This document shows, piece after piece, positions 16,049 through 63,829 of a DNA stretch of 64,000 nt. The DNA lies in the NCBI GenBank assembly GCA_900553365.1, contig USDL01000001.1:55967-119966 (forward strand), given 5' to 3'. The notes beneath the pieces are model-generated. The model saw only the letters and a list, made by a program, of their open reading frames with translations. It had not been told where the DNA came from and ran no database searches. The stretch's first letter is position 1, and each line of letters begins with the position of its first letter. Both the position numbers and the translations under genes were made by a program. This DNA comes from an uncultured Clostridium sp. Its GTDB lineage: Bacteria; Bacillota; Clostridia; TANB77; CAG-508.

Positions 16049-16049
16049 G

Positions 16050-16751
16050 TTAAGCCTCCCATTCTTCGGGATGTTCAGCCATTATTTCTTGAACATCTCT
16101 TTGTAATTCTGATAAAAACATATTATCTTTTTCCTTTTGCTTTTGCAAATCTTTTCTAAAATTATAATCTCCTATAAAATCTGTGTTTACTATTCCATCA
16201 TCAATAATATCTTCAGCAGAAATTTCTTCCTTGTGATTGCGTTTATTACGTCTTTCCTCTTCTTCTTCCTGCTTTTTAATAATTTCAGAACGAGCTACAT
16301 CTATTGCAACAGGCTGTTTTGTTAAAACATATTCAATTAATTCAGTTTTAGTCATCTTCATTTCTTTGTATTTTTGCCAAAAATCTCTGGATTCAGCAAA
16401 ATAACGTACAACCATGAAGATGTCTGATTCTGTCTTTATGGGAGGAGCTGGATTATCAGCATACTCGTACATATAATATAAAGTATAAAGAATTTGAGAA
16501 TTAGTCAAACCATATTTTTCTTTTATCTTTTTTATATAAGTGGTTACAAGAGAAGCGTTAACCCACTCTCTCATACCCAAGTTATCCCAAAGATAATCTG
16601 TTAAAAGTCTGTAATCTTTAGCATCATGGGCAGGCTATTTGCCGCAAACTGAACAATAATTTTTACCATTTACGGTGATAATTTCTTCAAAAGGGAACAT
16701 TTTGCCACAAACACTACATTTTCTATTTTTTCTTGGTGCTATAATCCTCAC
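16050..16751 (-). CDS. Zinc-ribbon protein, possible replication-organiser/helicase-loader position
   Basis: ORF 16050-16580 extends through TAG (16635-16637) into CSVCGK...CSVCGK. Only non-ATG starts are available (GTG 16749, ATT 16743, ATA 16740) after AAAGGAG, so the start is uncertain. Confidence 0.45.
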
Positions 16752-37900: not shown

Positions 37901-38895
37901 AGCCGCCCTTCAGAATTAGTCGCGGAAACATACTCACCTTCTTTATTAATAAAAGGAGCAAATGCAGTAGTTCTTAAAACAGAAGTGTCAGTACCTTTTA
38001 CAACACGGCCTTTAGCATCAACATAGTGGTCATCTGAATCTTTTACAAAACCTTCTTGGAAGCCTCTAACTTCTATTTTTCGACCCCATTTATCAGAACC
38101 AGCTAAAGTTCTTATGCCACCAGCATGAGTCTTATCTACATATGCCCTGACATCTTTTTCTATCTGTGGATGGCGTTTCTCAAACTCCGTATCCGACATT
38201 TTAGATTTCTTTTGCTAAGTTACAATCCTTTTCATTTCCTCAGCAAAACGAGCCTCTTTCTATCGAGTAATTTTATCTTCTTCCGCCTAATTAGTTTTTG
38301 CGTTAGCTTCATAATATTTACTCATGGCATCAATTTCTTTATTATACTATTCCTCAGTTAAATTCCTTTTTGCCATGGTTTCAGCTTTATAGTCTACTTT
38401 GCCTGTTTTCGCTGCTTTTTCTCTTTCTTTCTTTATTTTTTGTTGATAGGCTTTTTGTTGCTCGGCAGCAACAATAACAGGCTTAAATTCTGTGATTTGT
38501 TTAGTATATTGCCCAATCCAAGAATCTAATTGTTTAATAAAATCAACTCTTTCTGCTAAATATTTTCCAATAGTGTCAAATTGACTATTTACACTTCCAA
38601 TATTGGAAATTTCACCAGACATTTTAGAAATTTGGGCTTTTTTACTAAGAAGAGTCTCTTTTTGTGACTGTAAAGACTAAGTAGAACTATTATTTTTTTG
38701 TAAGAAATCTGACCTTCTTGCGAATCTTTCTTGTGCAGTTAAATTCTATCCTTTGATAGATTCTTCAAATTGTTTGTTCAACTTACTCATTTTATCAGTA
38801 AGTGTTTTATCTATTTTTTCAATTTCTCGGTCTAAAAGCTAAGTACTTTTGTCCAAGCCAAGCTTTATTTCTACTTCGTATTGATTTTGAGCCAT
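25981..38895 (-). CDS. Tail tape measure protein, 4304 codons
   Basis: All gaps between about 30 ORF-track fragments were checked triplet by triplet. There is a single open frame from ATG 38893-38895 (RBS AAGGAGGAG) to TAA 25981-25983, broken only by 41 TAG codons. It contains a TP901-type tape measure core (32656-33147: ...SAGDLAEAMSRASNSAQMAGTSLD...), a Gly-zipper membrane-like segment (31135-31602) and extensive coiled coil. Confidence 0.8.
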
Positions 38896-40400: not shown

Positions 40401-41393
40401 TTAATTATCAATACTAATACCAAATAAATCTTCAAGCTCTTTATCATCCTTCGGGGCAAGATATCCCTGCGTAGTACTGATATTATCGTGTCTTGCGATA
40501 AGCCTGAGTTTTTCGATTGGAATAGATGGCATATTATTATCAATCAAATGTTGATGCGTACCATTAGAATAATTCTCTAATGCGCTATGACGTAACGAGT
40601 GAACATTAAAAGATTGCTCTTCTCCTGTCATTTGCTCAACTATCTTTCTCCAACCAACTACCCATTCATACAAATTCCGTGGTGATGCAGCTTTTCCCTC
40701 CGCATTTACAAACAACTCGGGGATTCCATCCTCACCTCTTTGTTCTAAATATTTCTTTGCTGCTTTTTTAGTGTAATCAAAATAAATTAAAGGAAATTGC
40801 TTCCGTCTTTTTCCAGTTACAATATTTGAGCAATTTCTATCATCTCTAACACTATCTTTAAGAACCTAAGACAGTTCATTTTTTCTTGCTGAACTTTCAT
40901 AAGCTAAAGCTAGCAAAGTAGCATCTTTATATTTTTCATTTTCCATAAAATAATTATAAAGCTTCATAATTATATCATTAGAAAGAAATTCAATTTCACG
41001 AACAGCTTCCTTTGGCAATCCTTTAACTTTTGAAGCATTATTAATTAAATAATTATAATCCTGCTCATTGGAAGCATATTCAAGCATTGTTCTAACCATT
41101 GACATAAGACGATTAATACGTGCCGCACTTACTCCCAATTCTTCAGAATAATAAAGTGTAAAATTACGAAAATCTCTCTTACTTAATTCTAAAATACTTC
41201 TATTATCAAGCTTCTGCTTAATATAAAGTAATACAATTCTACCATCATTATAGTACTATGCAATAGTTGATGGCTTTTTCTTTGTTGCCTTACATTCAAT
41301 TATAAAATCATCAAGCAAATCTTTATTTTCTCGATTTACTTTTTTATATTCTTCCTCATCAAAAATTTTATTATAAGGTTGTTGACGAGCCAT
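40401..41393 (-). CDS. Tyrosine recombinase / integrase
   Basis: Three fragments join in frame through TAG at 41256 and 40866 (gaps checked). Catalytic signature: R in YESSARKNEL, HSLRHS, ARHDNISTT, and Y in TQGYL. ATG 41391-41393. Confidence 0.75.
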
Positions 41394-41769
41394 TATTCTC
41401 ACCATCCTTTTCATAATATGCAAACTAATATTCCATTTTCTACCCATCTATAATAACATTACATTTTCTAACATGACCTTTAATGTTTCCTCTTAATGTC
41501 GATTCATTGATTTGATAATACTGGGCAGCTTGATGAACATTTTCAAAGATTTTCCCTGATGTTAAACAAATAACTTGTTTTATTGGTTTTGCTTTTCTAA
41601 GTTTTGTATTCTTAGATTCATCTAAATATCTCCAATGATATCCTTTACCATCTTTATCTTTCCCACAAGTTTCTATTCTTCCATAAAGAACAGCGCGAAT
41701 ATTAGCTTCACTCCTATTAATAGATTCAGCAGCTTTTACTATACTTTCAAATATTTCTCCCGTTTCCAC
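41371..41769 (-). CDS. DNA-binding (NUMOD/IENR-like HTH repeat) module, probably the C-terminal part of the HNH endonuclease
   Basis: Repeated F(E/K)S...AA......I... HTH-like units (EIFESIVKAAESINRSEANI; KIFENVHQAAQYYQINESTL). The frame stays open upstream to the A7/T7 run at 41858-41864. It reads through TAG at 41440 and 41428 to TAA 41371-41373. Confidence 0.5.
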
Positions 41770-45547: not shown

Positions 45548-45958
45548 TTCTTTATTGCATAAAACGCTAAAGCTAAACTCTAACGTCTTAAGGAACTCCT
45601 TGTACACATGGTACATGAGATATGTGGCTCAAACCCGCTTTACGAACCCGTAAGTTTGGTCTTCTTTAAGTCCTCATCCTGTGCTCATGGACACCACATT
45701 AAAAAGCTGCAAGACTATGCCTTGTAGCTGGCCTAAATATACAACATGGTATATAAGGTGATAAGGTTTATGCCGACACCTTAAAACGCCTTTCTCTTCC
45801 GTTTGAAACCACGCATGAAAGTATGTTGGTCGGACAGTTTTAATTGCTACCCTGTGGAAACCTGACAACCCTAATAAGCCTCCATTGCATCACTGGATGG
45901 TAGCCCAATATACAACTTCTCTGGCAACCATGACCTCTTGTGCCAATAGGTTTATTTA
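45548..45958. ncRNA. Unassigned structured non-coding island (~410 nt)
   Basis: Visibly more GC-rich than its surroundings. There is no credible ORF in any frame, even with TAG read as sense. It has many local hairpins (GCTACAAG-gcatagt-CTTGCAGC, TTACG-ggtt-CGTAA, TGTAC-catgt-GTACA, GCTACC...GGTAGC), a duplicated GTTGTATATT..GGC motif, and hairpins bracketing it on both sides. Confidence 0.4.
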
Positions 45959-47761: not shown

Positions 47762-48133
47762 TTACTTACTCTTCTGTAAATCTTTGTACCAAGAAGGTAA
47801 TTCAAATTCAACAGTCTCACCAATAGAGTATTTACCAAAATTATTCATCGTAAGACCTTTCCCATTTTCAAGAATTACCCAAGCAGAAGTCTTCCACTTA
47901 CTATGTACAATCCCTCTTGCCCAACCTTCTTTTAATTTTGACTTTTCGGCAATAGGCTTAACTTCTTCTTCAGCGACACTTTCTAACTCCTGCTTAACAG
48001 ACTCAACAATTTCTTCTTTTACAATTCCCTTGTTGTGCTTGTTTTTGTCATACTTCTTATATTGAATCTGCTTCTCCTTGTTTTCTTTCTTAGGAGAAAC
48101 TTCAATATCAAAAGCGCTGTTCATTTCATCCAT
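47762..48133 (-). CDS. Hypothetical Lys/Glu-rich protein (123 aa)
   Basis: Intact ATG ORF with RBS GAGAGGAG. It lies downstream of the major tail gene. No TAG codons. Confidence 0.5.
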   Translation of the reverse strand: MDEMNSAFDIEVSPKKENKEKQIQYKKYDKNKHNKGIVKEEIVESVKQELESVAEEEVKPIAEKSKLKEGWARGIVHSKWKTSAWVILENGKGLTMNNFGKYSIGETVEFELPSWYKDLQKSK

Positions 48134-48293
48134 TTCTTAATCTCCTCTCACAGCTCGTCATGGCAGGAGAATTTTCCCATGCACACTTCTAATGACAATA
48201 TTTTTGATAAGGACAGAGCCGATGAGGTTCTTTCCCATCGACTCTGCACGTTATTCTTCCACCATTTTCCTGCTGTGCATTACTGCAAAGCAT
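48126..48293 (-). CDS. Candidate small cysteine-rich protein (55 aa)
   Basis: ATG 48291-48293 lies 9 nt after GGAGA. Hand translation: MLCSNAQQENGGRITCRVDGKEPHRLCPYQKYCH-x-KCAWENSPAMTSCERRLRNG, with one TAG. The TGA overlaps the next start (ATGGATGA). The same region could instead be a structured RNA. Confidence 0.4.
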
Positions 48294-48322
48294 TTATTTT
48301 AATCTCCTGTTCGTTAATTAAA

Positions 48323-49357
48323 TTAAGCAACAGTAATATTCATAGTGTCGGAAAGCTTATCATTAGGGACAAACTTAACAGTAACGACACTAGTATCCAC
48401 AACGGTAACGACACCATTAGCATAAGTGCTAGCACCAGTGGTAACAGCAACCGTATACTGGTCAGGATTCAACTTAATAGGAGCACCATCAACAGGGCAA
48501 GCATAGACGTTAAGTTCAATCTTATCGCCAGCCTTTGCGGTCTGGTTTTTATCCTCAATAACAATGCTAACGAACATGTCAGCGGCGGTCTTGTTTTCAA
48601 GAACCTGAACGATTTCAGCATAAACGCCGTCGCCGTCGCAACCAGCACAACCAGAAGCAAGAGCAGAACCTTCAATAGAAGTGTTAGAAACACCAGAAGC
48701 GCTCATGCTGAGTTCTTGAGAACCGTTGAGCATGAAACGAGAAACCTTGATGATAACCTTACCAGCGAGGGTAGAGGTCTCAACATCACAAGAACCACCG
48801 TTGTAAAGATTAGCCTCAAGAATGCAAGTCAGAGTCTTAGGAATGAAGTTAGCGCTAATGGTAATCTTAGAAGCAATATCATTATGATACATATAACGAA
48901 CACAAACTTCGGCATCCTTCATTGCCTCACCAAGAGAAACTTCATTTACACCATCGCCAGCAACAGCATAACGCTGATAGCCTTCGTCGGTGCCAGACTT
49001 CTTAATATAAGCATAAACATTAGTATTACCAACCATAGGAACAGCCTTATAAGACAAAGTAACCTTACCAGTAGCATCAGCAGTGAGCTTCTCGTCTTTC
49101 ATAGCGTCACCACCGAGTTCAACCTCAGAACCAGTATTCATGGCAAGATACTCAAGAGAGAACATGGCATCGGTCAGCTTGAGGTCAAAAGTAGAAGTAT
49201 GCGCATAACGACCGTAAAGTTTATTCCGCATTCCTGCGCGAAGGTCTTCGAACGAAATTCCTATAGTGATACTGGAATCAATTAAGGTATTGGCAGTAGC
49301 GACAAGGCGTTCGCCATCAAGAAGAGTGGCACGGCCTACACCAGCTAAAAATAACAT
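48323..49357 (-). CDS. Major tail (tube) protein with a C-terminal Ig-like domain (putative)
   Basis: The 344 aa intact ORF shows a strong shift towards GC-ending, highly-expressed-type codons. A beta-rich, Ig-like C-terminus reads ...VTVVDTSVVTVKFVPNDKLSDTMNITVA. No TAG codons. Confidence 0.5.
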   Translation of the reverse strand: MLFLAGVGRATLLDGERLVATANTLIDSSITIGISFEDLRAGMRNKLYGRYAHTSTFDLKLTDAMFSLEYLAMNTGSEVELGGDAMKDEKLTADATGKVTLSYKAVPMVGNTNVYAYIKKSGTDEGYQRYAVAGDGVNEVSLGEAMKDAEVCVRYMYHNDIASKITISANFIPKTLTCILEANLYNGGSCDVETSTLAGKVIIKVSRFMLNGSQELSMSASGVSNTSIEGSALASGCAGCDGDGVYAEIVQVLENKTAADMFVSIVIEDKNQTAKAGDKIELNVYACPVDGAPIKLNPDQYTVAVTTGASTYANGVVTVVDTSVVTVKFVPNDKLSDTMNITVA

Positions 49358-49371
49358 AATATATATCCTCC

Positions 49372-50394
49372 TTATTTATTTATTCTTTCCTTTTCTTTAA
49401 AAGGTTTTACATCATTTCTTTGTAAAATTTTATACAAAGTATTATTAGATATCTTGTATCTTTCACAAATTTCTTTGTTATCAACACAAGATAAATAAGC
49501 ATTTATTATTTCTGTTTCTTGAGTTTTAATTCTTCTTTGTTTTTGCCCTTTAGTTTCTATGGAGTAGTCCCTAATAGATAAAAATTCTTGATATTTTTGA
49601 TATTTTCTTTCTAAATATAAAGTACTATCTTTGTATATCCAGTCTAAAAATATTTTAATATCTTCCTATCTATTAATTTTTAAATGAGCACAATTCTCCT
49701 TATTTTGATAATAAACTATATTAACAGAAAGATTTTGCTCTATGACTTCTTTTAATTCTTTTAAGAAAATAGGATGCCCAGCTATTTCTGTCATTCCTCT
49801 TGCTCTTCCTTTGTAAGTTATACTTACACATCCATCCCCATCAAACACCCGTCGAATATAATCTCTTAAATATTCTTTTGGAATATAATCTGGAAAATGT
49901 AAACAATAAGTTTTTCTTTCTGGTAAACCAAGGTCTTCTATTTTCTAACAAAAATATTTATTAGTTAATCTCAAAGAGCACTAAAAATTTTCGCCTCTAC
50001 TTTTTGTCGCTTTTTCATAAACGTCATAAATGGGTCTATTACTTTTTAATAGCTTTTTAAATTTTTCTAATAACTCCTAATCTCTTTTTTGTAATTTAAT
50101 CTAAATATAATTATATTTTTTTAAATTACAGCCATCGGCAGCAAAGAAACCCAAGAAATAAAATTTTTCAGGACTGTCTAATTTATCTAGCCAATGTTCA
50201 TTAAAAGTATACGGAGAAGCTTGATTAGCATCATAAATAGGGTCGTTTGATTTTCTCATTTCAACCCGTTTCTTTTTAAGATAATTTCTAACTGCAACAT
50301 CACTCATTCCATATCTTTCAGCTAACTAATCAGCCGAAAGACCACTAAGATAATCTTCAATTACAGAAGTACCATCTAATTTAGATTTGCCCAT
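49372..50394 (-). CDS. Free-standing double-motif LAGLIDADG homing endonuclease with N- and C-terminal HTH regions
   Basis: Motif 1 is YFLGFFAADGC and motif 2 is IRRVFDGDGC. The fragments join in frame through six TAG codons. ATG 50392-50394 follows GGAAAGGAG. TAA 49372-49374 lies in the RBS of the major tail gene. Confidence 0.8.
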
Positions 50395-50414
50395 AGCAAC
50401 TCCTTTCCTTTTAA

Positions 50415-51422
50415 TTATGTAACAGAAGCAAACTTCTTTTGGAAATCATTCATCGTCATAATTTCCTTAGACATATCCTTCTTGTTATCAGTAAATATCC
50501 AATGGTGAATGTCTCCATCCTTAAACTAAACCATCCGAGACATAGCACCCTAAATCTAAGCATAATAATACCCCTTAGCATCAATGGTTTTTAGCATTAA
50601 AGAAAGTTTTCTCAAACTTACTTGTTCTTTTAACATCTCCATAGTGTATGGAGAACTAATGGATATACAGACAAGCTATTTTTCCAAGCTTGGAGATGTG
50701 TAATTCTTGTTCTGCATCCTCGCCTTTAATTCCATTTCTTCTCTTAAATTGGGGTCGATATACCTATCTCCATCGTAATCCAAAATATTTTGGTGTGTAA
50801 TAATAGCTATAAATTCATCAAGTTCTTTTGGTTCTAAAACTATATCGTATATATATAATTTTTTCATGCCATTAGCACCCGTTTGAATTCCATAGATATC
50901 TCTCATTTTGCTCTTACATTCTGGACATATAACATAATTATTAATAAACTCAAGAGCTTTAACTTTCTTTTCAGTTTCGCTTAAATTATCAGGTAATGTT
51001 TCTTGGAATTTAGCATATTCTTTGATAACTTCAAACTAAGTTCGTTTGAATCCACAATGAGGACAAAACAAACCATTTTTTTCATGGAGCACAAGTTCAA
51101 ACATATTAATTACCTAAGAAGTAACCATAGGTCCATATTCTTGATTTTCCATGTTCTATATTAAATATGCCATATAAGACATACCAATACCTTCGGGATT
51201 AGCCACTTTTTTAGTGGTTTCTATTCCATTTTCATCTACAATTTTTATTTCTTTAATATTTTTATCTTGAGTAAAACAAGATAAATTAGCATAAAAATTA
51301 TAGTAATCTTTCGTTAAAACTGGATAAATTAACAAGCCTTTAAATGGCACTGGTAAATCCAGACCGAAATAGGCTTGTTCGTACATTTCCATTTTAGCTT
51401 GTAACTCTTTAGATATTGCCAA
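50415..51422 (-). CDS. Hypothetical protein with a zinc ribbon (CPHCG...CPEC), 335 aa
   Basis: ORFs 51156-51422 and 50676-50906 plus the gaps join in frame through seven TAG codons. A TTG start follows directly after the upstream TAA. Stop is TAA at 50415-50417. Confidence 0.5.
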
Positions 51423-52079
51423 TTAAGACACCCCACTCATATAGCATCCTAATACAACTTTAATTCCTTCAAAATTTCTGTTGTTCCAAATTCCATATTG
51501 AGCCTATTGGAATCTACTCATCATTGTTGAAAACTCTAAATTACCAACACCCTGCACATGAGCGCCATTGAGCAAAAACAAAACAGCTTTTAACAAAGTA
51601 GAAACACGACTTTTTCCAGTAATAGGAATTTCAACCCCATCAACCGTATCAACAGGATAAGTTTTATCATCATCACTTGGATTGATATTAATACATTTAT
51701 TATGTGTAATTATATCAATTCCAAAGTTAACAACAGCTTTGTATCTATCTGTAGGAATAATTTGGTCGATATAAATTTTTAATAACGTACTTTCAACCGT
51801 CCAAGCATCTTCAAAATGAGGACTTCTAAAAATACGTTTGTCGGTTTGTGTTATATCATCAGAACATATCAAAGAAGTAATCTATTGATATGTAGGCAAT
51901 TCTCTATTAAGAGCATCTGCATCATTATAATATAAAAGTTTCCAAATAATATGAGTTTGTTCTAATTCTTCAGGAGTTTTTTTATTGGGAGATAATAAAT
52001 AATAAATTATTCTATCTTCTACTCCATCTAAATTTACAAAACGGTTAAATGCAGATGGTGCATAACTACTATCTAACAT
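51423..52079 (-). CDS. Hypothetical structural-module protein (218 aa)
   Basis: ORFs 51882-52079 and 51504-51872 join through TAG at 51882 and 51504. The ATG overlaps the upstream TAA (TAATG). Confidence 0.5.
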
Positions 52080-53302
52080 TAATAAAAACCTCCCAATTTA
52101 AAACTAAAAGTCTCACTAATAGTAACCCCTGCAACATCAGGGTCGATACAAGTGGCAATTACATCTAATGTACCTCTATTGCAAGCTTTTAAATTTTTAA
52201 TCTTAAAGGTGTTATCACCAGTTTGTTCAAATTCATAATATTTGGACCAATTTTCTTCTTTTATACCATTTAAAACAACTTTGTACTCGAAGTGAGTGGA
52301 AAGTGTACCACCTTTGAAACTTAATTCAGTTTCACATTCTTTGCTATTGCCAAGAATTATTTTATAATCATCACAATCTTTAAGAGTAATATGATACTCC
52401 TCATCGTGAAGGTCTTCCTTTTTTGGAATAAGATATAAAGGAGCATTATTAGCGACACGTGTTACAGCATCGTCATTAGCACCCCATAAATCTTTATCCA
52501 ACGCCAAGACCACGAAAGGTATATCTTCTAATCCAGTAAAACCACTTTTTGCAAAAGTTTTGGTGGATGTACTCTTTATAACAGCTTTAACTTTATATAT
52601 AGCATTATTTTCAATGTCGTTCTAATCTGTACCACCAAGAATAACTCGGCTATTAATTTTAACAGCATTTGAAAAATAATTTAATTGCATTGTGACATAC
52701 CACTCAGCTTGAGGTATTACCAAAGTTTTATTATAATACTGGTTCATATATTTCAATTCGTTTTCCAGTACAATAGGCTCATACCTTATTTCAGTGGCAT
52801 CTGTTTGACTGTTTGTTGAAGACCCAAGTAATGCAATATTAGCATTACATCTACGAATTACGCAAGAATTCCGTGGATTTATAGGAGAATTATTTATAGC
52901 AATCCAAACACTCGTATTATAATGTTTTTCTTCTTCTGTCATAACGCTTAAATCCTGAAATTCCAAAGAAAAGCGATATCTTTTTCCAAGAGGATTGGGA
53001 TATTTTAAATCTCTAAAAGAAATTTCTGCCCAATCTGTACCCAAATCTTCACCACGTTCACCCTTAACATTTCTTATAACAACAGTCTCAAGAGGTGTAT
53101 ATTCAGGCATTTTGGTTGTGTATTCAATTTGTCGGTCTTTTTCTTCTTCTATGTCAACAGTATTATATCTATACTCCCAATCCTAATTGCGTTTATGTTG
53201 CAGATTTTGAATGTAATAATTATCTCCAACCATGTTATGCTTTAAACGAGCTTTGAGCATGATACTGCTATCAACAATATCGGTAGTATTTAAAATCGCC
53301 AT
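52079..53302 (-). CDS. Hypothetical structural-module protein (407 aa)
   Basis: ORFs 52622-53110 and 52079-52513 plus an upstream extension join through two TAG codons. ATG at 53300-53302. Confidence 0.5.
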
Positions 53303-53319
53303 TTTAATCCATAATCTCC

Positions 53320-53655
53320 TTAACCTTCGTTTTTGTATTTCTTTAATAAATACTCTGCATAATTGATTGATTCAAATATTAACTTCTTAATCTGTCCTTT
53401 ATCTAATTGATTCGTTAAAATAGCATTGATATTAATTATAATACTTACTAATTCACCATCAAAAAGAATATTACTTGACGAAACATACATCATTATTCCA
53501 CCACAATACACACGGTAATTATAAGTGGAATCGGGTTCTTGAGATTTGTCATATACATAAAGAACTTTCTTCAATTTTGAAACTATTTCTTCTAAGCATA
53601 TAATTTTCTCATTAATAGATAAAACTACTTTGAAGTTCTTTTCGTCTTTATCCAT
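53320..53655 (-). CDS. Hypothetical protein (111 aa), head-tail joining region
   Basis: Intact ATG ORF with no TAG codons. Confidence 0.45.
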   Translation of the reverse strand: MDKDEKNFKVVLSINEKIICLEEIVSKLKKVLYVYDKSQEPDSTYNYRVYCGGIMMYVSSSNILFDGELVSIIININAILTNQLDKGQIKKLIFESINYAEYLLKKYKNEG

Positions 53656-53657
53656 CT

Positions 53658-54365
53658 TTACCCCCTTCCTATAAACTTACTACCACCCATAAAACGGATT
53701 TGCCACGCAAGTCTATTTTGATAATTGTATATTTCTGAATCAAGTTGGTCTACCCATTCGTTTTTTGCTTTTAAGATACGGTCATTAGACATAATCTTGA
53801 AATCGCTGTCTTGCATTAAATTGCGAATATCTAATAACAAATTGCGCTCTTCTTCTCCCCATGCTTTTACAAGCAAACGAGCAAGAATATCTTTAACATA
53901 ACCTACCACTAAACTTGTACCATTTACATTTTTATTAGTTAAGCCTTCAAAATTGTCAGTAAATTCACCAACATAATATTGCTCAACTGCATATTGCTTG
54001 CCTTCAGGTAACACATCAGGGAATTCTACAGTGTGAGCTTCTTTATCAATCGAGCCTTGCACCAATAATTCTCCCTCAATATAATTATATACTGAATTAT
54101 CCTGAATCTCAAACTCAGGGTCAAGTTCGAATTTATTATTCTTACCATCCCCTTCAAAAACTTGCATGATACCTTTTGGTTCTTTATATTGAGATAAACG
54201 TAAAGAAACGCTTAGAGGGTTGTTAAACATAGATATTGCATTTTGCAAATAGGTGTACATTATCTTATTAAATTGCAAAGGATTAGTCTCATACGCTGTC
54301 GTAATCCTTGGGTCATCAAATAAGGCTATTGCTTTTCGATAGACATCACTAAACAAAATGCCCAT
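53658..54365 (-). CDS. Hypothetical protein (235 aa), head completion/connector position
   Basis: Intact ATG ORF with RBS AAGGAGGG and no TAG codons. Confidence 0.45.
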   Translation of the reverse strand: MGILFSDVYRKAIALFDDPRITTAYETNPLQFNKIMYTYLQNAISMFNNPLSVSLRLSQYKEPKGIMQVFEGDGKNNKFELDPEFEIQDNSVYNYIEGELLVQGSIDKEAHTVEFPDVLPEGKQYAVEQYYVGEFTDNFEGLTNKNVNGTSLVVGYVKDILARLLVKAWGEEERNLLLDIRNLMQDSDFKIMSNDRILKAKNEWVDQLDSEIYNYQNRLAWQIRFMGGSKFIGRG

Positions 54366-54384
54366 TTAAACCCTCCTTATTTGT

Positions 54385-55233
54385 TTAATGTCTTATTGAA
54401 TCAAAATTCATTTGAGCCAACAGATTGTCAAAAACACCCTTGTTAGAAATTCTGTTCAGAAGCTCAACTTTACTTCTAACACGATATTTAGCATCATTTT
54501 CATAGCACTTTCCAAGCCAATAAGAACAAATAAAGTCTTTATCAGCTTCAGTCAAAGAATTCATGTAATCCTCAAGTTCACGCTCACTCTTCTTGTAAAT
54601 ATTTACGAGGTCTCCCTTCGTAACAACAGCATGACCCTCTCTCTTTAAACAGGAAACATTATAGCGTTCCGCAACATCAGCGAATTCGGGAGCCAAAAGA
54701 ATAATTTCTTTATCGAACCACTTACGATATTTGGAAACACATTCCTCAAACTGTTGCCAACTAAGAACACGCTGTTCTCCGAGAGTATGGAAATTAATAG
54801 TCAAACCAGTAAGCTGAATAGCGGTTGAAAGACCACCAAGCAATTCACGATTATGAACAATAACAATTTCCTTGTCACTCTTTCTATTACCAAGAATTTC
54901 CAGAAGTCTTTCTGTTGTATTAGAAGTATTATCCTGTACTTCTTTTGCCTTAAAAGAACTTTCTGTGTCGCCCTCTTTATTATCCAAAGTAGATTCTTTG
55001 ATTGCTTCTGCCAACTTTTCATTCTTTACTTTCTCTTCCTTGAGTTCACTACTCAAAGATTCAATCGTAGACTGGAACTTTGCCATCATAACTTGAATAT
55101 CTTCTAACGAGATAGAAGACTGAGTAGCAGAAGACTCCTTAACAGAAGTCTCCGCATTCTCAGCAATTTGTTCCTTATTAGTTTCGTTTACAACTTCTTC
55201 TGTATTTTTAATAGTTTTCTTATTTACAGCCAT
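54385..55233 (-). CDS. Hypothetical protein (282 aa) downstream of the capsid gene
   Basis: Intact ATG ORF with RBS AAAGGAGA and no TAG codons. Confidence 0.45.
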   Translation of the reverse strand: MAVNKKTIKNTEEVVNETNKEQIAENAETSVKESSATQSSISLEDIQVMMAKFQSTIESLSSELKEEKVKNEKLAEAIKESTLDNKEGDTESSFKAKEVQDNTSNTTERLLEILGNRKSDKEIVIVHNRELLGGLSTAIQLTGLTINFHTLGEQRVLSWQQFEECVSKYRKWFDKEIILLAPEFADVAERYNVSCLKREGHAVVTKGDLVNIYKKSERELEDYMNSLTEADKDFICSYWLGKCYENDAKYRVRSKVELLNRISNKGVFDNLLAQMNFDSIRH

Positions 55234-55341
55234 TTTTTACAATCTCCTTTTAAACCTTTTAAACATATCTGGAGCAACCAGAATTTACGAAATTAACTAA
55301 TTATTATAATTAATTACTTATAATTAGATTATAATTTGATA

Positions 55342-55953
55342 TTAGTTAAGAGTAATAGCACCAATCTTGCTACCTACAATAGCGTCCATACCCATACGCA
55401 TGTCAACGGTGAAACCGTAAGTATGGTCAGCAGCAAACAAGGGGTCCTTCTCAACAGAAACGGTATTACCCTCCATGACAACCTTGATAGGCTTATTCAT
55501 GCCAAGAGGAAGCATATAAATAATATCGTCGGGAAGAACGACTTCAGGCTCACCATTGATGGTGTTAGGAACAAGAGCATTACCCAGTTCAATCATAGGA
55601 ACATTCTTGTAATCAGGCAGGAAGCCATCTCTAACAATAGCGCTATCCTCACCATAACGGAAACCCTTTGCACTGTCAGGAAGGACAGAAGCGAGAGCAA
55701 TAGAAGTACCAAGAGCATAAACATCAGCACCGCCATTAGCAAGTTTTACCAAACGTGCAACTTTGAGCCAGTTTTCATCAGTAAGACCGTTAGCCATATA
55801 GCCAGCGATACCATCCTGATTGTTAGTAGCAACGTCAGTGTTATTGGTAATAATAGAAGCCATTACCTTAGCAAGACGAGCCTGAATATAAGCGGCAAAA
55901 GAAGCACCAATCTTCTGGAGAAGCTTACCCCAATCTTGGCGGCCCGATGCCAC
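55342..55953 (-). CDS. Major capsid protein, exon 2 (5' boundary approximate)
   Basis: It has the same GC-ending codon style as exon 1. The ORF lacks its own RBS or ATG. It lies directly after the intron-encoded endonuclease. Stop is TAA at 55342. Confidence 0.6.
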   Translation of the reverse strand: MASGRQDWGKLLQKIGASFAAYIQARLAKVMASIITNNTDVATNNQDGIAGYMANGLTDENWLKVARLVKLANGGADVYALGTSIALASVLPDSAKGFRYGEDSAIVRDGFLPDYKNVPMIELGNALVPNTINGEPEVVLPDDIIYMLPLGMNKPIKVVMEGNTVSVEKDPLFAADHTYGFTVDMRMGMDAIVGSKIGAITLN

Positions 55954-57406
55954 GTGGTCAGTTATATTAAGAGTTATTTAGTGTTTTTAGCTTTTTGCTA
56001 TTCATAATCTTTTAAAATTATTTCAGCATAATAATTATTATCTTTTAATAGCCAATTTATCTTGTCAATTATTTCTTGTTTTTCTGGAATAGAATGGTCT
56101 CCTTTTATTCTTAAGACTTTGTAACCCATTTTTTGAACTACTCTATCTCTTTTTATATCTTTCTACTGGTCTTGATGCCAATACCAACCATCATATTCCA
56201 AATCTATTTTAATATCTCCAATAAAAATAGCTACATCTAAATTGAGTTGACTTAAAGGGTAGTTCAACTCTACTTTATATTCATCTAAAAGCATTTCATA
56301 AATTTTTAATTGTTGTGAAGAACATGGAATTAATTCTTTTTTATTAGCTAATGCTTCTTGCATTCTTTTTCGCACTTCTGGATTTTGTACGGGATAATCA
56401 CAACCGTATTTTTCCCTGCAAGTGTTGATAGCTTTAGCCCTTACTTCTTTATTCGAAAAAGGATTTACATCTCCATATTTTTCTAAACAAGTTTTAACAG
56501 CTTTTTCTTTTGCTTCTTTTGTTAAAATTGGATATTCAACTCCATATTTTTTCAAACAAGTCTGTTTTGCTTTTTCTTGACCTTCCTTAATCTACCGAGA
56601 ATTATCCACCCCATATTTTTCATTTAAAGTCTTTTTAGATTTATCCTTAATTTCTTTACTTTTAGCAGGATTATCTACTCCATATTTTTCTAAATTTGTT
56701 TTTATAGACTTATTATTTCTTTGAGCTATTAGCTCTTTATTCTTTCCCCAACAATCTCTACAACAATATTTACCATCATGCTTTTCTATTCTTTTTAAAT
56801 ATTTTTTGTATTGAACCGTTATTTCTTTTCCACAAAAATCACAAACAGCCACAACTTCTCTATGGCTTCCTTCTGGTAATTCTTCTGGTTTAACATGAAT
56901 AGTCTTCCCTTTAAAAAGACTATAACCTTTTTCATTGAAATATTTCTAAGCGGTTTGTGTCCAAGGAATTTCAATCAATTGATTTTCTTTTAACATACAA
57001 ACCTCCTTTTTATTTTATTTAAACACTAAATTTTTCGAATCGTCAATTCGCTCTAACCCTTTCGGATTCTTGTATTTTCACACAAGCTTAGACTATATCT
57101 TCATCCCTATAGGATGTCCACCATTTCGGAATAATTTATTGACTATATTCCTACTCCTCTTACGAGGATAGTCGTTGAACCTTCTTCTTTTCGAAGCTTG
57201 GCTGCTGATTACCAATTTTTAAGATACTTAGGGTTTAACCTTATATCATACAATCAATTTTTTCTGCTTTCGCAACTATCACGATTAAATCTATTTCAAT
57301 TTTGCGTTGTAGTTTGATTGTCTTTACGGTATTCCAGCAATTAAATGGAAATATTTTTACGCATATTACTATACGCCCTAGCTATTTATAACGTGCTTAT
57401 ATTTAA
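55954..57406 (-). mobile_element. Group I intron (IA-like) in the major capsid gene, carrying a homing endonuclease ORF
   Basis: On the minus strand the conserved core reads GGTTCAACGACTATCC (R element, 57181-57166) and GAAGATATAGTC (S element, 57102-57091). GNRA/GAAA-capped hairpins include TCCTC-GTAA-GAGGA and AATCC-GAAA-GGGTT. The capsid codon style stops abruptly after ...GTTGACTGG. Exact splice sites are not resolved (roughly +/-20 nt). Confidence 0.8.
55974..56996 (-). CDS. Intron-encoded homing endonuclease (repeated KYG-x-xNP modules plus a C-terminal Vsr/PD-(D/E)xK-like nuclease)
   Basis: ATG 56994-56996 follows AAAGGAGG. Four tandem ..EKYGVDNP.. type repeats are followed by DLEYDGWYWH..KD.KRD...GYKVLRI. 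Four in-frame TAG codons. Stop is TAA at 55974-55976. Confidence 0.7.
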
Positions 57407-57901
57407 CCAGTCAACATAGAGAGAAATCTGCTCTCTCTTAGCAGAAATAGTATACTCAGTGTTAGAAGCAGTCTGAACACCACCACGAGCAATGCCTTCA
57501 GCAAGGCTATTCACAATGAAGAGCTCATTGCTATCGACTTCATACTTAGCAACATCACCGAAACCAACCTGAGTGACATCATAAAGCTGTTCATAACCAG
57601 ACGCAGCAACAGTAGGAACAACAGGAGTGATAGCACCAGCAAGAATGGTATCAAAAGTCTCAAGGAAGTTACTCTTCTTGTAGACCATAGGATTCTTAAT
57701 CATATCGAGACCGCTCCACTTCATGCCAGCGTTCTCAACACAATACTTCATAAACTCTTGGTTAAAGGTCTTATTAGCTTCAATATACTCAGGGGTGTTG
57801 TTCTTACCCTCAATGGACTTCTGAGCCAAAGAATAGCAAGTTTCAACGAGACCATCAGCGACATCTTCGTTGAATTTGTTATAACTAAAAATTTGTTTCA
57901 T
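57407..57901 (-). CDS. Major capsid protein, exon 1 (3' boundary approximate)
   Basis: ATG 57899-57901 follows AAGGAGGA. It lies after the protease/scaffold and decoration-like genes. Highly-expressed-type codon usage (AAG, CTT/CTC, ATT/ATC) ends near 57407. No TAG codons. Confidence 0.6.
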
Positions 57902-58009
57902 AATAACAAAATCCTCCTTAATTAATTTATAAAAATCATAAAGTAAATATCAATATTTTTTTAAACTATTCAAGTTATTCAAGAACAATTATTCAAGAAC
58001 AATTTAAAA

Positions 58010-58537
58010 TTACTCGTGGACAACGGTGCAATAGAACTTCTTACCCTCGTTCTTGACACCGATAATCTTATCCTTGCCAAACTCGACCTTAACACAGAGC
58101 TTGTCAGCAGCAGCAACAGCAGCAGGAGCCCACTGACCATCAGAACCAGCAACAGCGAACTGACCAGCCGTAGGAGCAGACTCAAAGTTATCTTCACCGA
58201 GATAGAACTCGTCACCAAGCTTGGGGCAACGAACGCGAGTATGAGCACCAGCAGGGCAAGGAAGACCGCAAGTCTTAACACCCTCACTGTAGACAACGCC
58301 CATGATTTCGCCCTTAGAAACGCCAACATAGTCAACGATACCGACACGACCAGTACCAGCGTAAGGCTTAATCTCACGAGTATTCATATCCTTCAGACCC
58401 TTATAAACCTCATGGTCGATAAGGTCGCCAATTTCAACCAAAGAACCATCAGCGAGTTCCTTGTCTTTGCAAACGCCAGAAACCAGATAGCTTTTAACAT
58501 CTTCAGAAGCCATCAAAATCTTCTCAATAAATTTCAT
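58010..58537 (-). CDS. Head auxiliary/decoration-like protein (175 aa), putative
   Basis: Intact ATG ORF with RBS AAGGAGGA and GC-ending codon bias like the capsid gene. It lies between the protease/scaffold and the capsid gene. No TAG codons. Confidence 0.4.
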   Translation of the reverse strand: MKFIEKILMASEDVKSYLVSGVCKDKELADGSLVEIGDLIDHEVYKGLKDMNTREIKPYAGTGRVGIVDYVGVSKGEIMGVVYSEGVKTCGLPCPAGAHTRVRCPKLGDEFYLGEDNFESAPTAGQFAVAGSDGQWAPAAVAAADKLCVKVEFGKDKIIGVKNEGKKFYCTVVHE

Positions 58538-58561
58538 AATAAAGTTATCCTCCTTTTTTAA

Positions 58562-60475
58562 TTAAATCTTATTAAGATTTTTCATTGCATTTTTAAGGTT
58601 ATTTGCGCTGTCGTTCACTTCAGTAACAACAGGTTTATCCTTAACGATATCAGCAGAGAACTCTTTCTCCTTAGCTTTTCTACTAAGTTTCTTCTGAGCA
58701 TAAAGAGCATCTGCAATTTTATGGTCAACAGCCTCATTAAGTTCCTCATCGGAAGCATAAGTACTGTTATCACAATTTTCTTTCATAAATGCCTTAATAT
58801 TAGTAGCATTTTCCTCAGTCAAATCTTCTTCAGAATCAACCAAAGAACAAGCCAAAGCATAAAGTTCGGCATTTTTCTTTGCGTTAAACTGAGCATTAAG
58901 AGCATTATACTTTTCAGTCAGTTCAGCGAAAGAGGTATTAAGAGTATTGAATCTCTCATAAAGTTCATCAGCAGTAAGTTGTTCATCACCGACAGCATAG
59001 TGGGTATCCTGAATAACATTACTTTCACCAGAAGGTTGGCCGACTAAAATACTGCCATCATCATGTTCTTTGAGGATATCAGTATCAACTTTAGGAGAAC
59101 CAAGCTCTTCACCTTCAATCTGTCCATAGTCAGCATGAGATTCATCGACAGTTACATCAGTAGCGGCAAACTGAGCGGGGTCTTCGCAATTTTCGATTTT
59201 CTTTTCACCATCGTTATCCTCAGCCTCGGTTTCCTTTTTGCCATCATCATCGTCGTTATCATCATTATCATCATCATGGTCGTGGTCATCATCATTTTTG
59301 TCATCTTCAGACTCATTCTCTTTATGACCGTCATCCTTATTACCATCGTCATCTTCATGCGCACAAGTGCAAGGGTTGTTACCGCAGACTTCGCACTTGC
59401 CGTCTTCAGATTCACATTCCTTGGATTCAGTCTCTTTACCACTCTCATCTTCAGGATTTTCATCCTTAGAGAGTACAATCTTTTCTTTAGCGTCCATATC
59501 AACATTAGCGACATTTTCTTCGTTGATGCTATAAGTAGCTTTAAAATTTTCATCATCAAGGCTAAAGCAAACAACATTGTCGTTAATTTCCGTGACACTG
59601 TAATGAGAAGCATTCTCATCAAGACCGCTATTCAGAAAAGATTCGAGAAGTTGTCTTTTCTCTTCATAGGTCATTGTTTTTGGTTCCTCCCCTCTTTGTT
59701 CATTATCCATCGTGATTTCGTCCACTTTTTCATTAACAACTCCGTTATCAGGAATAATGGAATCGAAATCCTCATTTTTATTATCTGTATCAGAGCCAGA
59801 ATTTTTATCTTTATTGTTATTATCTTCCAGCTCTTTATAAGCGAAAGATAAGCATTTTTCCTGTTTCTGATAAACAGCGTCATTAATTTTATCAAGAATG
59901 GTTAAATGTGCATTAGGGATAGCTTCAGTAACAGCAGAACCAAGAATAGTAAATCCATCAAAAATGAATCTATCTATTACTTCGACTTTATTTTCATCTA
60001 TATGACTTTCAAGGACTTCTATTTCTATAGAAATTTTCTTTTTAGTATCCTTAAGCAATCTTTTAACTTGTTTATAAGCATATTTAGCCCAAAGAACGCA
60101 AGTAAAATGTACCCAAGTTTGACCGTCATGTTCGACAATTTCAACCAAATCTTCGCCACGAATTACGCCAAGTGGGACTTCACATTTACCATTAGTAAAG
60201 TCAAAGTAATCTTGTTGTAACTCATTATCCCATCTATATTCCATTTCATGAGCTTTAAAGTCATCATGAGTAGTATCAAAAGCACCAAGAGCGGGTTTAT
60301 TATAAAAGGTAGGTTTAGCGTCTTGCATAGCAGACACAGGGAAATAGCTATTATTTCTATTAGGGTAGACATCAGAAATCGCGTAAACGTCGATAGCAAT
60401 AAAGTCATTTTTTAACACATTCTTAATTTTCAAACTTTGCGGAGAAAGTTCAAATTTCAGAACTTTTTTATCCAA
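58562..60475 (-). CDS. Prohead protease / scaffold fusion (putative) with an extreme acidic low-complexity linker
   Basis: The 637 aa ORF starts at TTG after GAAAGGAGGAAG. The N-terminal ~200 aa is globular, followed by a D/E/N/H-rich tract and then a coiled-coil C-terminus. It lies immediately upstream of the head genes. No TAG codons. Confidence 0.45.
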   Translation of the reverse strand: MDKKVLKFELSPQSLKIKNVLKNDFIAIDVYAISDVYPNRNNSYFPVSAMQDAKPTFYNKPALGAFDTTHDDFKAHEMEYRWDNELQQDYFDFTNGKCEVPLGVIRGEDLVEIVEHDGQTWVHFTCVLWAKYAYKQVKRLLKDTKKKISIEIEVLESHIDENKVEVIDRFIFDGFTILGSAVTEAIPNAHLTILDKINDAVYQKQEKCLSFAYKELEDNNNKDKNSGSDTDNKNEDFDSIIPDNGVVNEKVDEITMDNEQRGEEPKTMTYEEKRQLLESFLNSGLDENASHYSVTEINDNVVCFSLDDENFKATYSINEENVANVDMDAKEKIVLSKDENPEDESGKETESKECESEDGKCEVCGNNPCTCAHEDDDGNKDDGHKENESEDDKNDDDHDHDDDNDDNDDDDGKKETEAEDNDGEKKIENCEDPAQFAATDVTVDESHADYGQIEGEELGSPKVDTDILKEHDDGSILVGQPSGESNVIQDTHYAVGDEQLTADELYERFNTLNTSFAELTEKYNALNAQFNAKKNAELYALACSLVDSEEDLTEENATNIKAFMKENCDNSTYASDEELNEAVDHKIADALYAQKKLSRKAKEKEFSADIVKDKPVVTEVNDSANNLKNAMKNLNKI

Positions 60476-61933: not shown

Positions 61934-63829
61934 TCAATCCTTTACTTTCTTTGGAATCATGTGAGTAAAAGTACTCATATCATTAATACGAGACTCATAC
62001 ATTTCTTCCAAGCATTCGTTACAAATTACATCTTCATCTTCATTCAGTTCTTTTCCGCAAATTTGGCACTTTTTGATATTATATGAAAACTCCTTAATGT
62101 CTGAAACATTAGTTCCAGCATTGGAAGAGTTACCAGTATTATCGTTGGTAATCTCATCGTCATTCAACTTTGGTCTACCAACAGGGTTAGCGATTAAATT
62201 TTCTTGGTCTAATACTTTTTCAACTTTAATATCTAAAGCTTTAAGGTAAGCTTTAGCTTGTTGATAATCATCAACAGTCATACCATTAGCCGACAGAAGT
62301 TTAGGAATAAAGCCTTCCAAGCCAGACACAACTTGTTCTCTAAGGATTTTAATATCCTCGCGAATATTAAAGATATCACCCCAAAGAGAAATTTTCCATT
62401 GGAATTTCAAATCAAAATTCTTATTAATCATTTCATTTAAGAAACTTTCGTACTGTCTGGTAAGGTAATCAATTCTAGCAGCCTAAATATATTGAGCAGC
62501 CTTAACAGAAGCGATAGAAGGTTTATCAGTAATACTCATAAGAGCAGAATTACCAGAAGTAGCGATTAAATCTCTAGTTCTATCGTAAATGATATCCATT
62601 GCTTCGGGCTGATTTTCTAAGGTGTGTAAATCAAATTCAGTAAACGGTGCAAAAAAGGGGAGTATATTACCTGAAATATTCTCCGCAAAGAAATCCTGAT
62701 AACCAAGAATTGTATCAGGAGTAATAACAGTAGAATCGGACCGGGCCTTGGCATCCTTCGTAATAGGAACCTCAGCAGTTAAAACACTGTTAACACCCTT
62801 ACTTAATAAATTTGCTTGCAACCATTTATAGTCATCCAAGTCTGTCAAATCATCAAACAGACCAATAGTATCAGGAAATGCATTAGGATGAGAGCCATCA
62901 AAATAGAATGTATAGCACAAATCTTGAGGCAATCTTACCCAATACATATAATTTTCTCCATTACTTTCCAAGATGTGACCATCGGGAAGTTTAGCTTTAG
63001 GAGAAATTCTCTTTTTCTTAGTTTTCTAATCTATAACGACAACTCCTGTTTCCAGCATTTGATTCCAGACATCCTGAATAAATTGAGGATATTGACTAAC
63101 ATCATAAGCTGGTTGAAGGAAAATTGCCATATTAAAAGCAATAGTAAACTACTGTTTACTACCAAAACCAATCAATTTAACCATATCGGTATTAAGTTTC
63201 TACATGACAAAGAAATTAACATCATTCTTATCATAGCTTGTACGAGGTAAATAAGAAGATTTACCTTCCAAACTCACCTGAGTAGTAATAGTTTTTAAAG
63301 TTAAATTTGGTTTAAAAGCTTTTAAAATCTTATCGACTTTTTGACTTTCTTTTTTAAAAGCTTCGGTAGACATATCTTTCGAGTCAACATACTCTGGGAT
63401 ATAATAATAATTAAATAAGGGAGTATCTCTATTAAGTTTTACTAAAATATTGTAAACATAATTAGTATAATACAGCCACATACTGATTCTCTAAAAAGTC
63501 ATTTCAGAGTTTTCTGGATTGTTTAAAGCATTTTGAAGGTCTTCTGATTGAACTTTTTGAGCCTTAGCGTTAACTTGTTTAATACGTTGATTCTGTAAAA
63601 ACGGATTATTTAATTGACTCCAAGACATAGCCCAAGCGCCAGCCAAGTTGTCAAAACCAGTAGAAGCGTATTTACCAAAAATAGTAGCCCATCTTTGCTG
63701 AATAGCCTTCAATGAAACATCTTCTTCAGGTTTATCCTAAGTCATAGTAATCATTTTAGCTTCTTCATTTACAACAGCTTTAGGCGATTCAACCTTTTTA
63801 GGTCTTCCTCTTTTTTTGGGACTATCCAA
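61934..63829 (-). CDS. Portal protein (putative) with a C-terminal zinc ribbon
   Basis: Four ORF-track fragments are in the same frame and the gaps were checked. They join through six TAG codons. TTG 63827-63829 lies 8 nt after GGGAGG. The product is 631 aa and sits upstream of the protease and capsid genes. The C-terminus carries CQICGK..CNEC. Confidence 0.55.

Follow-up and report, generated by a model that had tools for sequence, protein, structure and literature searches.

Graded avoidance of the recoded TAG codon among the virion genes of an SPbeta-like siphovirus

Introduction

Why should a phage that reads TAG as an amino acid keep this codon out of some of its structural genes and use it freely in the genes next to them? 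The question is raised by a 64-kb stretch of the contig USDL01000001.1 (hereafter the window, whose positions serve as coordinates throughout), which comes from a phage genome of about 215 kb and is part of a siphovirus of the SPbeta-like kind in which TAG is recoded to glutamine. A first-pass annotation, made from the letters of the window alone, had claimed that in-frame TAG is completely absent from the presumably most highly expressed virion genes, that the neighbours of these genes are full of it, and that decoding of the amber codon TAG might be a slow or limiting step that is selected against where flux matters.

Stop codon recoding in phages is currently accounted for as a timing device, which keeps the late genes for structure and lysis silent until the phage has switched its code. 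Capsid and tail genes of phages reportedly have the strongest bias towards preferred codons, and disfavoured codons are said to fall as the adaptation index rises. In the phage described here, TAG avoidance is graded, conserved among relatives and frame-specific, and it tracks both codon adaptation and expected copy number.

Results

TAG codes for glutamine

When TAG is read through, open reading frame (ORF) coverage of the window rises from 64.8 to 79.0 kb and a 12.9-kb ORF emerges, and the portal, tape measure, RecJ and helicase genes give full-length family matches only on this condition. Fifteen related IMG/VR contigs, 150-220 kb long and 71-96% identical in nucleotide sequence, served to check the meaning of the codon. 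In alignments with them, 62 TAGs of the window face glutamine codons of the relatives (37 CAA and 25 CAG), and likewise 62 TAGs of the relatives face glutamine codons of the window (39 CAG and 23 CAA), with no other codon class reaching comparable numbers. The correspondence holds also in alignments with standard-code relatives. Since TAGs align with CAA and CAG in both directions, TAG encodes glutamine in this phage.

Depletion of TAG in abundant virion genes

The 46 genes curated in the window together contain 123 in-frame TAG, 545 CAA and 159 CAG codons, 827 glutamine-type codons in all. A recount bore out that eight ORFs singled out by the first-pass annotation have no in-frame TAG at all. 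These are the 637-codon gene of a scaffold-like head protein of the YonD_N family (58562-60475, minus strand, as are all genes and blocks below; 0 TAG among 17 glutamine codons), the 175-codon gene of a capsid decoration-like protein (58010-58537; 0 of 2), the two exons of the major capsid gene (57406-57901 and 55342-55958), g282 directly after the capsid gene (54385-55233; 0 of 10), g235 in the head-completion region (53658-54365; 0 of 12), the small gene g111 (53320-53655; 0 of 3) and the 344-codon gene of the tail tube, or major tail, protein (48323-49357; 0 of 5). The in-frame stretches upstream of the chosen starts of these genes are short and also lack TAG. The contrasting counts for the neighbours were reproduced as well, with 7 TAGs among 16 glutamine codons in g325 (50415-51392), the TAG-richest late gene, 6 of 16 in a free-standing LAGLIDADG-type homing endonuclease gene (49372-50394), 6 of 35 in the portal gene (61934-63754) and 41 of 275 in the gene of the 4304-residue tape measure protein (25981-38895).

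Depletion was tested by permuting TAG among all 827 glutamine-type codons of the 46 genes. The eight ORFs hold 60 glutamine codons and 0 TAG against 8.9 expected, P(0)=4e-5, so that the permutation check proposed in the first-pass annotation rejects an origin by chance from length and composition. As a guard against choosing genes after their lack of TAG had been seen, a set was also defined by function only, consisting of the capsid, decoration, scaffold-like and tube genes; it has 0 TAG among 35 glutamine codons (P=0.003). Both results hold without the two giant genes, within 48-64 kb only, or without the homing endonucleases (P 5e-6 to 8e-3). Depletion is mainly frame-specific and owes little to composition, because the TAG-free virion genes contain TAG trinucleotides in the other frames at a frequency only about 40% lower. 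The lack of TAG in the small gene g111, with only 3 glutamine codons, carries no weight.

Over the window as a whole, TAG is distributed unevenly, with 21 of 46 genes TAG-free against 11.7 expected (dispersion test P<5e-5). By category, TAG makes up 0 of 35 glutamine codons in the abundant virion genes, 14 of 196 in 15 genes of replication and nucleotide metabolism (9 of the 15 being TAG-free), 73 of 408 in low-copy virion genes and 13 of 45 in homing endonucleases. The proposed tie between TAG-free status and highly expressed virion genes thus stands for the abundant virion set, but not as an exclusive one, for 13 other genes with 149 glutamine codons are TAG-free too, among them both pieces of the DNA polymerase III (Pol III) alpha gene, the primase, an SbcD-like nuclease, a metallo-β-lactamase (MBL)-fold protein and a tail protein, and most of these show no codon bias. 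The TAG-free replication genes fit the already published pattern in which early genes keep to the standard code. Neither do the late structural genes use TAG as a class, given that the capsid, decoration, scaffold-like and tube genes, g282 and the tail protein gene g413 have none. TAG-free and TAG-containing genes interleave (21 runs against 23.8 expected), without any code-block structure.

TAG use follows codon bias

The capsid, decoration and tube genes differ strongly from the other genes in their choice of codons: AAG is used at 84% versus 29%, CGT at 65% versus 22%, CAG at 78% versus 18% and GGA at 2% versus 33%, while ACA, CCA and TCA are at 0, AGA at 10% and TTA at 8%. Within the four-fold families T-ending codons predominate, and the two-fold families are enriched in AAG, GAG, CAG and C-ending codons. 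The style had been described as GC-ending and of the highly expressed type; the strong expression-type bias is confirmed, but the pattern is one of avoidance of A-ending codons and not simply of a GC ending. The G+C content of third codon positions alone predicts TAG use less well (rho −0.38) and the C content of these positions not significantly, and a codon-preference index was used instead. The index was built on the capsid, decoration and tube genes without their glutamine codons, and was tested on the 38 non-reference genes. It is negatively related to the TAG share of glutamine codons (Spearman rho −0.48, P=0.002; logistic likelihood-ratio test P=1e-6), which is the relation between TAG density and codon adaptation that the first-pass annotation had wished to see computed. 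The decoration-like gene has the highest index of the window, the tube gene is strongly biased and g235 is low; the scaffold-like gene, g282 and several replication genes rank next after the reference genes.

TAG is also rarer than would be expected from CAA, an ordinary non-optimal glutamine codon, the count being 0 TAG to 31 CAA in set B of the window against 123 to 514 (P=0.003), and 0 to 37 against 61 to 255 when pooled over the recoded clades described below (P=9e-4). From base composition, the neutral TAG share of glutamine codons would lie at 45-62%. Only three genes come near it, at 38-40%, namely g325, the LAGLIDADG gene and g1339, a large protein of the distal tail region (21790-25809; 20 TAG, 29 CAA and 1 CAG; no PHROG match), and these look relaxed rather than selected for TAG. 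Shine-Dalgarno sites are stronger in the TAG-free genes (−8.6 versus −6.4 kcal/mol, P=0.02). The +4 nucleotide context does not differ between TAG and CAA/CAG (P=0.6).

As a separate observation, TAG lies nearer to the 5′ ends of genes than CAA and CAG do (45/31/24/23 by quartile, raw P=0.016); the trend is marginal once the first 20 codons are dropped and the permutation is made within genes (P=0.04-0.06), and it is not used as evidence here.

The pattern recurs in related recoded phages

More distant loci were retrieved by a profile search, and four were added by contig look-ups. Four recoded clades can be distinguished, these being the clade of the window and those of L012/L030, L022/L029/L032/L034 and L035/L036. 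Nine further loci (L025, L026, L031, L033 and L037-L041) have the same head-tail gene order and no in-frame TAG, and keep the standard code. Recoding is confined to the subclade whose capsid proteins are at least about 62% identical to that of the window, the standard-code relatives being at 60% or below; it arose inside the SPbeta-like family and is limited to this one subclade.

In every recoded clade the capsid, decoration and tube genes, g282 and g111 are without TAG and the scaffold-like gene has 0-1, with 11-22% TAG in the other late genes. For the function-only set the per-clade P values are 0.002-0.05, and combined by Fisher's method over the four clade representatives they give P=2e-6; pooled over the clades, the set has 0 TAG among 132 glutamine codons against 61 of 404 in the other late genes (P=1.5e-8). 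The comparison with related recoded phages that had been suggested at the outset thus yields three further clades repeating the pattern. Gene by gene, the pooled counts are 0 of 49 for the capsid, 0 of 49 for the scaffold-like gene, 0 of 37 for g282, 0 of 21 for the tube and 0 of 13 for the decoration gene, next to 4 of 46 for g235, 11 of 124 for the portal, 9 of 58 for g407, 6 of 31 for g218 and 26 of 69 for g325, which is TAG-rich in all four clades at differing positions. The clades are nearly independent with regard to TAG, because the positions are almost wholly different: only 3 of 24, 1 of 28 and 2 of 28 TAG positions of the window are also TAG in the three other clades, respectively. 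Glutamine codons in general have turned over extensively between the clades. That TAG avoidance in abundant virion proteins is real and maintained by selection is supported by its recurrence in four clades with different TAG positions.

Complete absence, as first claimed, holds across the relatives for the capsid, decoration and tube genes but not for the scaffold-like gene, g282, g235 and g111, which show sporadic TAGs. One TAG is found in g282 of L014; g235 has 1-2 in L011, L012, L014, L015 and L035, and its pooled rate is ordinary. For this reason g235, and g111 for paucity of data, should be dropped from the claim of TAG avoidance. As seen from the single TAGs of individual relatives, the codon is tolerated in the scaffold-like gene, g282 and g111, yet kept rare. 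The result is a gradient, in which the genes with the highest bias have 0 TAG in any relative examined, the scaffold-like gene and g282 with intermediate bias have sporadic single ones and the low-bias genes have many.

Identities of the head and tail genes

By the protein families to which its genes can be assigned, the module at 48-64 kb is an SPbeta-like siphovirus structural module with the YonB, YonD_N, YomX_C, YomW and YomU_Tube families. The gene order is the same in the orthologous loci L038-L041, where YonD_N precedes the capsid gene and YomX_C, YomW and YomU_Tube follow it. A Pfam scan of ten late proteins gave no match, since the PF27xxx models are newer than the Pfam version scanned, and the names were taken from homologues or orthologues that carry the PF27xxx families.

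The spliced capsid protein has 370 residues, and its homologues carry PF27364 (Pfam YonB). Its exons match phrog_4088 at positions 25-139 and 145-330, respectively. An AlphaFold2 (AF2) model of a 95%-identical homologue (predicted local distance difference test (pLDDT) score 73) gives 324 matches to capsid and encapsulin proteins of the HK97 fold at E<=1e-3, and the capsid identity is thus supported by the modelled fold together with the YonB family. For the product of 58010-58537, the best matches of the AF2 model (pLDDT 77) are capsid decoration or cement proteins (E217, the base of phi29 gp8.5, TW1 and Sf11), which supports a decoration-like protein. The tail tube protein (phrog_2729) matches the solved tail tube proteins 8k98 and 9jgh (E=4e-4), and its orthologues carry PF27173 YomU_Tube. 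The 637-codon gene (phrog_3313) starts with TTG, with AAGGAGG 8 nt upstream, and its homologues carry PF27290 YonD_N. The central part of the protein is acidic and of low complexity and the C-terminus is coiled, and these features and its position fit a scaffold. The alternative label of a protease found no backing, as Pfam gives YonD_N only, and PDB and PHROG give no function. Sequence and profile searches of the PDB with the scaffold-like protein, the capsid family and the decoration-like protein returned nothing significant.

The capsid exons are separated by a 1447-nt intervening sequence (55959-57405) in which a homing endonuclease ORF with 4 TAGs is located (55974-56996). Exon 1 ends in ...TGG T, and the junction TGG-T | AC-CAC was deduced from the intron-less allele of L001. 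With U as the last nucleotide of the 5′ exon and G as the last of the insert, the boundaries are like those of group I introns, and no intron model of Rfam matched the insert. L004-L006 and L012 have the insert and L001-L003 and L007-L010 lack it; L015 seems to carry it without the endonuclease.

Among the TAG-containing genes, the portal is recognized by phrog_2739 (E=4e-38) and the tape measure by phrog_4211, 'tail length tape measure protein' (E=3e-53). Tail length is about 0.15 nm per residue of the tape measure protein, and with 4304 residues the tail is predicted to be about 0.6 µm, which would be exceptionally long. The protein encoded by g325 has two CxxC pairs, reminiscent of a zinc ribbon, and no PHROG or Pfam match. 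The LAGLIDADG-type endonuclease between g325 and the tube gene (phrog_4645, E=1e-48; motifs LGFFAADG and FDGDGC) is present in L001, L002 and L008-L010 and missing from the other near-identical relatives, and L012 and L015 have other endonuclease-like ORFs in its place.

Other features of the window

Every long ORF lies on the minus strand and the GC skew is negative across the whole window. Besides the head and tail-tube module, a replication block at 1-19 kb contains, by PHROG, the two pieces of Pol III alpha, a DnaB-like helicase, a primase, RecJ-like, RecD-like and Sak4-like proteins, a dUTPase and others; a tail block at 19.5-39.5 kb includes the tape measure and the 1339-residue protein; and a mixed block at 40-47.5 kb includes an integrase-like tyrosine recombinase gene (40401-41474; 3 TAG among 13 glutamine codons), an HNH endonuclease, a resolvase, the SbcD-like nuclease, a ClpP-like protease and the MBL-fold protein. 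The region had no megablast match among GenBank phages, and protein searches found only distant Firmicutes phages with 21-26% identity; the distant cultured relatives infect Firmicutes.

Several smaller observations concern the gene map. The two Pol III alpha ORFs, at 6709-8157 and 8511-10952, lie about 350 nt apart and match phrog_405 at positions 281-745 and 787-1090. The upstream ORF has 277 open codons before its first ATG, with one TAG within, presumably the missing N-terminal domain; the gene could also contain another insert or begin at an unusual start codon. Similarly, the DnaB-like helicase gene (14234-16081) has 118 open codons upstream of its first ATG, at which there is no Shine-Dalgarno site. 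In the gap between the MBL-fold and ClpP-like genes, 45830-45926 (minus strand) is a borderline match to the Rfam 'drum' RNA, with 43.6 bits where the gathering score is 43. On the plus strand, long antisense ORFs, the largest with 433 codons, lie over codon-biased genes at 47987-49285, 59048-59851 and 55324-56007. The first is in exact antisense register with the tube gene and stays open because TTA, CTA and TCA are nearly absent there (3/0/0); the long antisense ORFs are shadows and no genes. In a promoter and terminator scan of 47-64 kb, promoter-like sites were at the shuffled expectation and the only terminator candidates were two hairpins, one small and downstream of the capsid gene, the other strong and downstream of g123, so that the scan gives no usable evidence on transcription units.

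Discussion

The reading that we favour, with a probability of roughly 0.6, is that TAG is the least favoured glutamine codon of this phage and that purifying selection against it rises with the amount of protein required from a gene. Where translational selection is negligible, TAG would drift towards the neutral share of 45-62%, as may be the case in the homing endonucleases, g325 and the 1339-residue tail protein. Low-copy virion genes, such as the portal, the genes between the head and tail modules and the tape measure, lie at about 9-19% TAG, and the genes of the highest-copy proteins, namely the capsid, decoration, scaffold-like and tube proteins, are held at zero and use the optimal CAG instead. 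The cost would be expected to arise in decoding, where a suppressor tRNA of the phage would compete with release factor 1 of the host. Ribosomes would then dwell longer at every TAG, run a risk of terminating prematurely there, or both, and the penalty would scale with the number of translation events and could be tolerable in a protein of 3-12 copies. A second pressure, the compatibility of early genes with the standard code of the host, probably keeps many of the unbiased replication genes poor in TAG.

The capsid and tube proteins are the highest-copy components of a virion, and a tape measure of 4304 residues implies a very long tail with tube subunits of the order of a thousand. The copy number of the tube protein would thus be comparable to that of the capsid protein, which fits the tube gene being as strictly TAG-free as the capsid gene.

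A number of points weigh against this reading. The term 'abundant' is based on protein function and codon bias, and no suppressor tRNA or release-factor gene lies in the 64-kb window, in which an ARAGORN scan detected no tRNA. The logistic P value ignores overdispersion. In the window alone, the comparison of TAG with CAA in set A, the function-defined set, gives P=0.085, so that a depletion of TAG beyond that of CAA is seen only with set B or with the clades pooled, and for the three window genes with the highest bias, which have 18 glutamine codons, zero TAG is also predicted by a general avoidance of non-optimal glutamine codons. Flux leaves unexplained the 13 other TAG-free and mostly low-bias genes (for example Pol III alpha with 0 of 39, g413 with 0 of 19 and the primase with 0 of 12). 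The 41 TAGs of the tape measure gene imply efficient suppression, which limits the cost per codon. Finally, the TAG-enriched tail-tube family in crAss-like phages (Borges et al., bioRxiv 10.1101/2021.08.26.457843) indicates that the rule is not universal.

Alternatively, as the first-pass annotation also suggested, the TAG-free virion genes could have been kept in the standard code so that they are translated before the suppressor system of the phage is active. The TAG-poor state of the unbiased replication genes (14 of 196, with 9 of 15 genes free of TAG) matches the published early/late model, and between 60475 and 53320 the head genes form an unbroken series without TAG, the intron ORF excepted. 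However, the same particle needs the portal (6 TAGs), the tape measure (41) and, with 2 TAGs apiece, g407 and g218 from between the head and tail modules. None of these can be made without suppression, and capsid or tube protein produced early would lack partners for assembly. Genes with and without TAG moreover alternate along the window, and it is their strong codon bias that sets the TAG-free virion genes apart from the TAG-free replication genes and points to flux. Such timing is less parsimonious for the virion genes, for which we consider it unlikely, and probably explains the unbiased TAG-free replication genes.

Similarly unlikely, in our estimate, is that amber suppression is never fully efficient and that the TAG count of a gene acts as a quantitative attenuator which sets virion stoichiometry, so that there would be no TAG in proteins of about 1000 copies, some in those of 3-12 copies and many in selfish or dangerous genes. 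The stricter form of this idea seems somewhat more doubtful still. Here selection would actively keep TAG in genes whose products are needed in few copies or could do harm (portal, tape measure, tail fibre, homing endonucleases and g325), since leaky suppression lowers their yield, and zero TAG in the abundant proteins would just mean that they are not throttled. It would account for a TAG share roughly inverse to the expected copy number and for the TAG-rich g325 in four of four clades (26 of 69), and it would agree with the finding by Borges et al. that intron endonucleases and some tail or lysis genes are preferentially recoded. Yet even the richest genes, with 38-40% TAG, stay below the neutral 45-62%, which makes positive selection unnecessary, the TAG positions are unconserved between clades, and 41 TAGs would abolish the synthesis of the tape measure unless suppression were nearly complete, leaving little room for throttling.

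A difference in evolutionary rate, whereby TAG accumulates in fast-evolving, weakly constrained genes and substitutions have been less frequent in the conserved genes of capsid and tube, is a very improbable cause. More mutation was found in TAG-containing genes of gut phages by Lou et al., and no late protein here is more conserved than the capsid (63-81% identity), but the pooled TAG share is unrelated to amino-acid identity over 14 genes, 13 of the late module and g482 (rho −0.09, P=0.76). The fastest-evolving proteins are in fact encoded without TAG (scaffold-like with 41-51% identity and 0 of 49, g282 with 51-57% and 0 of 37, decoration with 58% and 0 of 13), and the turnover of glutamine codons between clades gave these genes ample chance to gain it. 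We find it barely credible that recombination with standard-code relatives brought in the present head block and tube gene too recently for TAG to have built up in them. Such relatives with the same gene order do exist, and the head block and tube genes do differ in composition, but the TAG-free genes are no closer to standard-code relatives than the TAG-containing ones (against L038: capsid 60%, portal 59%, g218 61%, tube 45% and decoration 46%), they lack TAG alike in each of the four recoded clades, between which protein sequences diverge by 20-60%, and the shift in composition is one of codon preference with the T-ending four-fold codons kept, not a uniform GC shift. Chance has a negligible probability, for although single genes are uninformative (2, 3 and 5 glutamine codons in the decoration gene, g111 and the tube gene, respectively) and the genes first proposed were picked after their lack of TAG was seen, the function-only set and the three further clades all agree.

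The phage shares a number of properties with the recoded phages studied by Borges et al. and by Yutin et al. 2021 (PMC7886860). In these as well TAG is read as glutamine, its use has been tested against CAA/CAG per gene and some families are significantly depleted, and replication genes are TAG-poor, intron or homing endonucleases TAG-rich and standard-code relatives nearby. In the per-family tests of Borges et al., lysis genes, the crAss tail-tube family and an intron endonuclease are enriched in TAG, and integrases and early genes are depleted, which was read as timing; the text of the preprint contains neither 'capsid' nor 'highly expressed'. Stops in the capsid genes of crAss-like phages were taken by Yutin et al. 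as evidence of recoding, which shows that a rule of TAG-free capsid genes is not universal either. The two studies treat the late structural genes as the recoded class, whereas in the window the depletion lies inside the late module, concerns the highest-copy virion proteins and tracks codon adaptation. Also, integrases avoid TAG in the recoded temperate phages of Borges et al., whereas the integrase-like gene of the window has 3 TAGs.

Of the phages with a mixed code, the dual-code crAss-like genomes described with Mgcod (bioRxiv 10.1101/2022.06.29.495998) likewise have standard-code parts and code 15 parts; there, however, the codes form blocks, in contrast to the gene-by-gene interleaving without long blocks seen here. 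Phassvirus phAss-1, also a gut phage that is recoded, likewise encodes Pol III alpha and a long tape measure. In the paper that describes it (PMC10607447), TerL and the tape measure are listed as TAG-containing and the major capsid protein and Pol III alpha are not, a contrast neither remarked upon nor tested there, and the capsid and Pol III alpha genes of the window show the same split. Phassvirus belongs to a different lineage, as the capsid search did not retrieve its sequences.

Translational selection on the codon usage of phage structural genes is a subject of, for example, Lucks et al. 2008 (PMC2266997). In comparison with selection of this kind, the disfavoured codon of the present phage is a reassigned stop, at which a suppressor tRNA would meet a release factor, and its cost may include premature termination besides slow decoding. 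A parallel is known from ciliates, in which the reassigned UAA and UAG are used less in the most highly expressed genes and translational inefficiency was suggested as the reason (McGowan et al. 2023, PMC10553269). There the code is that of a eukaryotic nucleus, the tRNAs are dedicated ones, eRF1 is altered and RNA-seq was used to measure expression, in contrast to a virus in a host that presumably uses the standard code and with expression inferred. Expression-linked avoidance of a reassigned stop codon inside the late module follows from codon-bias theory and, as far as we found, is undescribed for phages.

To the current account of recoding as a switch in time, the present phage adds that within the late module the proteins made in the largest amounts have gone without the recoded codon for a long period of evolution, and that TAG use falls as codon adaptation rises. 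If the favoured explanation is true, reading TAG as glutamine costs measurably even after the code switch, which bears on the efficiency of natural suppressors and on the spread of recoding from standard-code ancestors; it makes the simple prediction that the TAG share is related to protein copy number across independently recoded lineages. Were TAG an attenuator instead, recoding would have a dosage function added to that of timing, and an inverse relation between TAG share and copy number would be expected in every independently recoded lineage. In practical terms, capsid and tube genes can look standard-code in a recoded phage, and are hence poor markers for code detection and annotation. 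With its recoding limited to a subclade, the SPbeta-like family is a good system for dating the spread of TAG.

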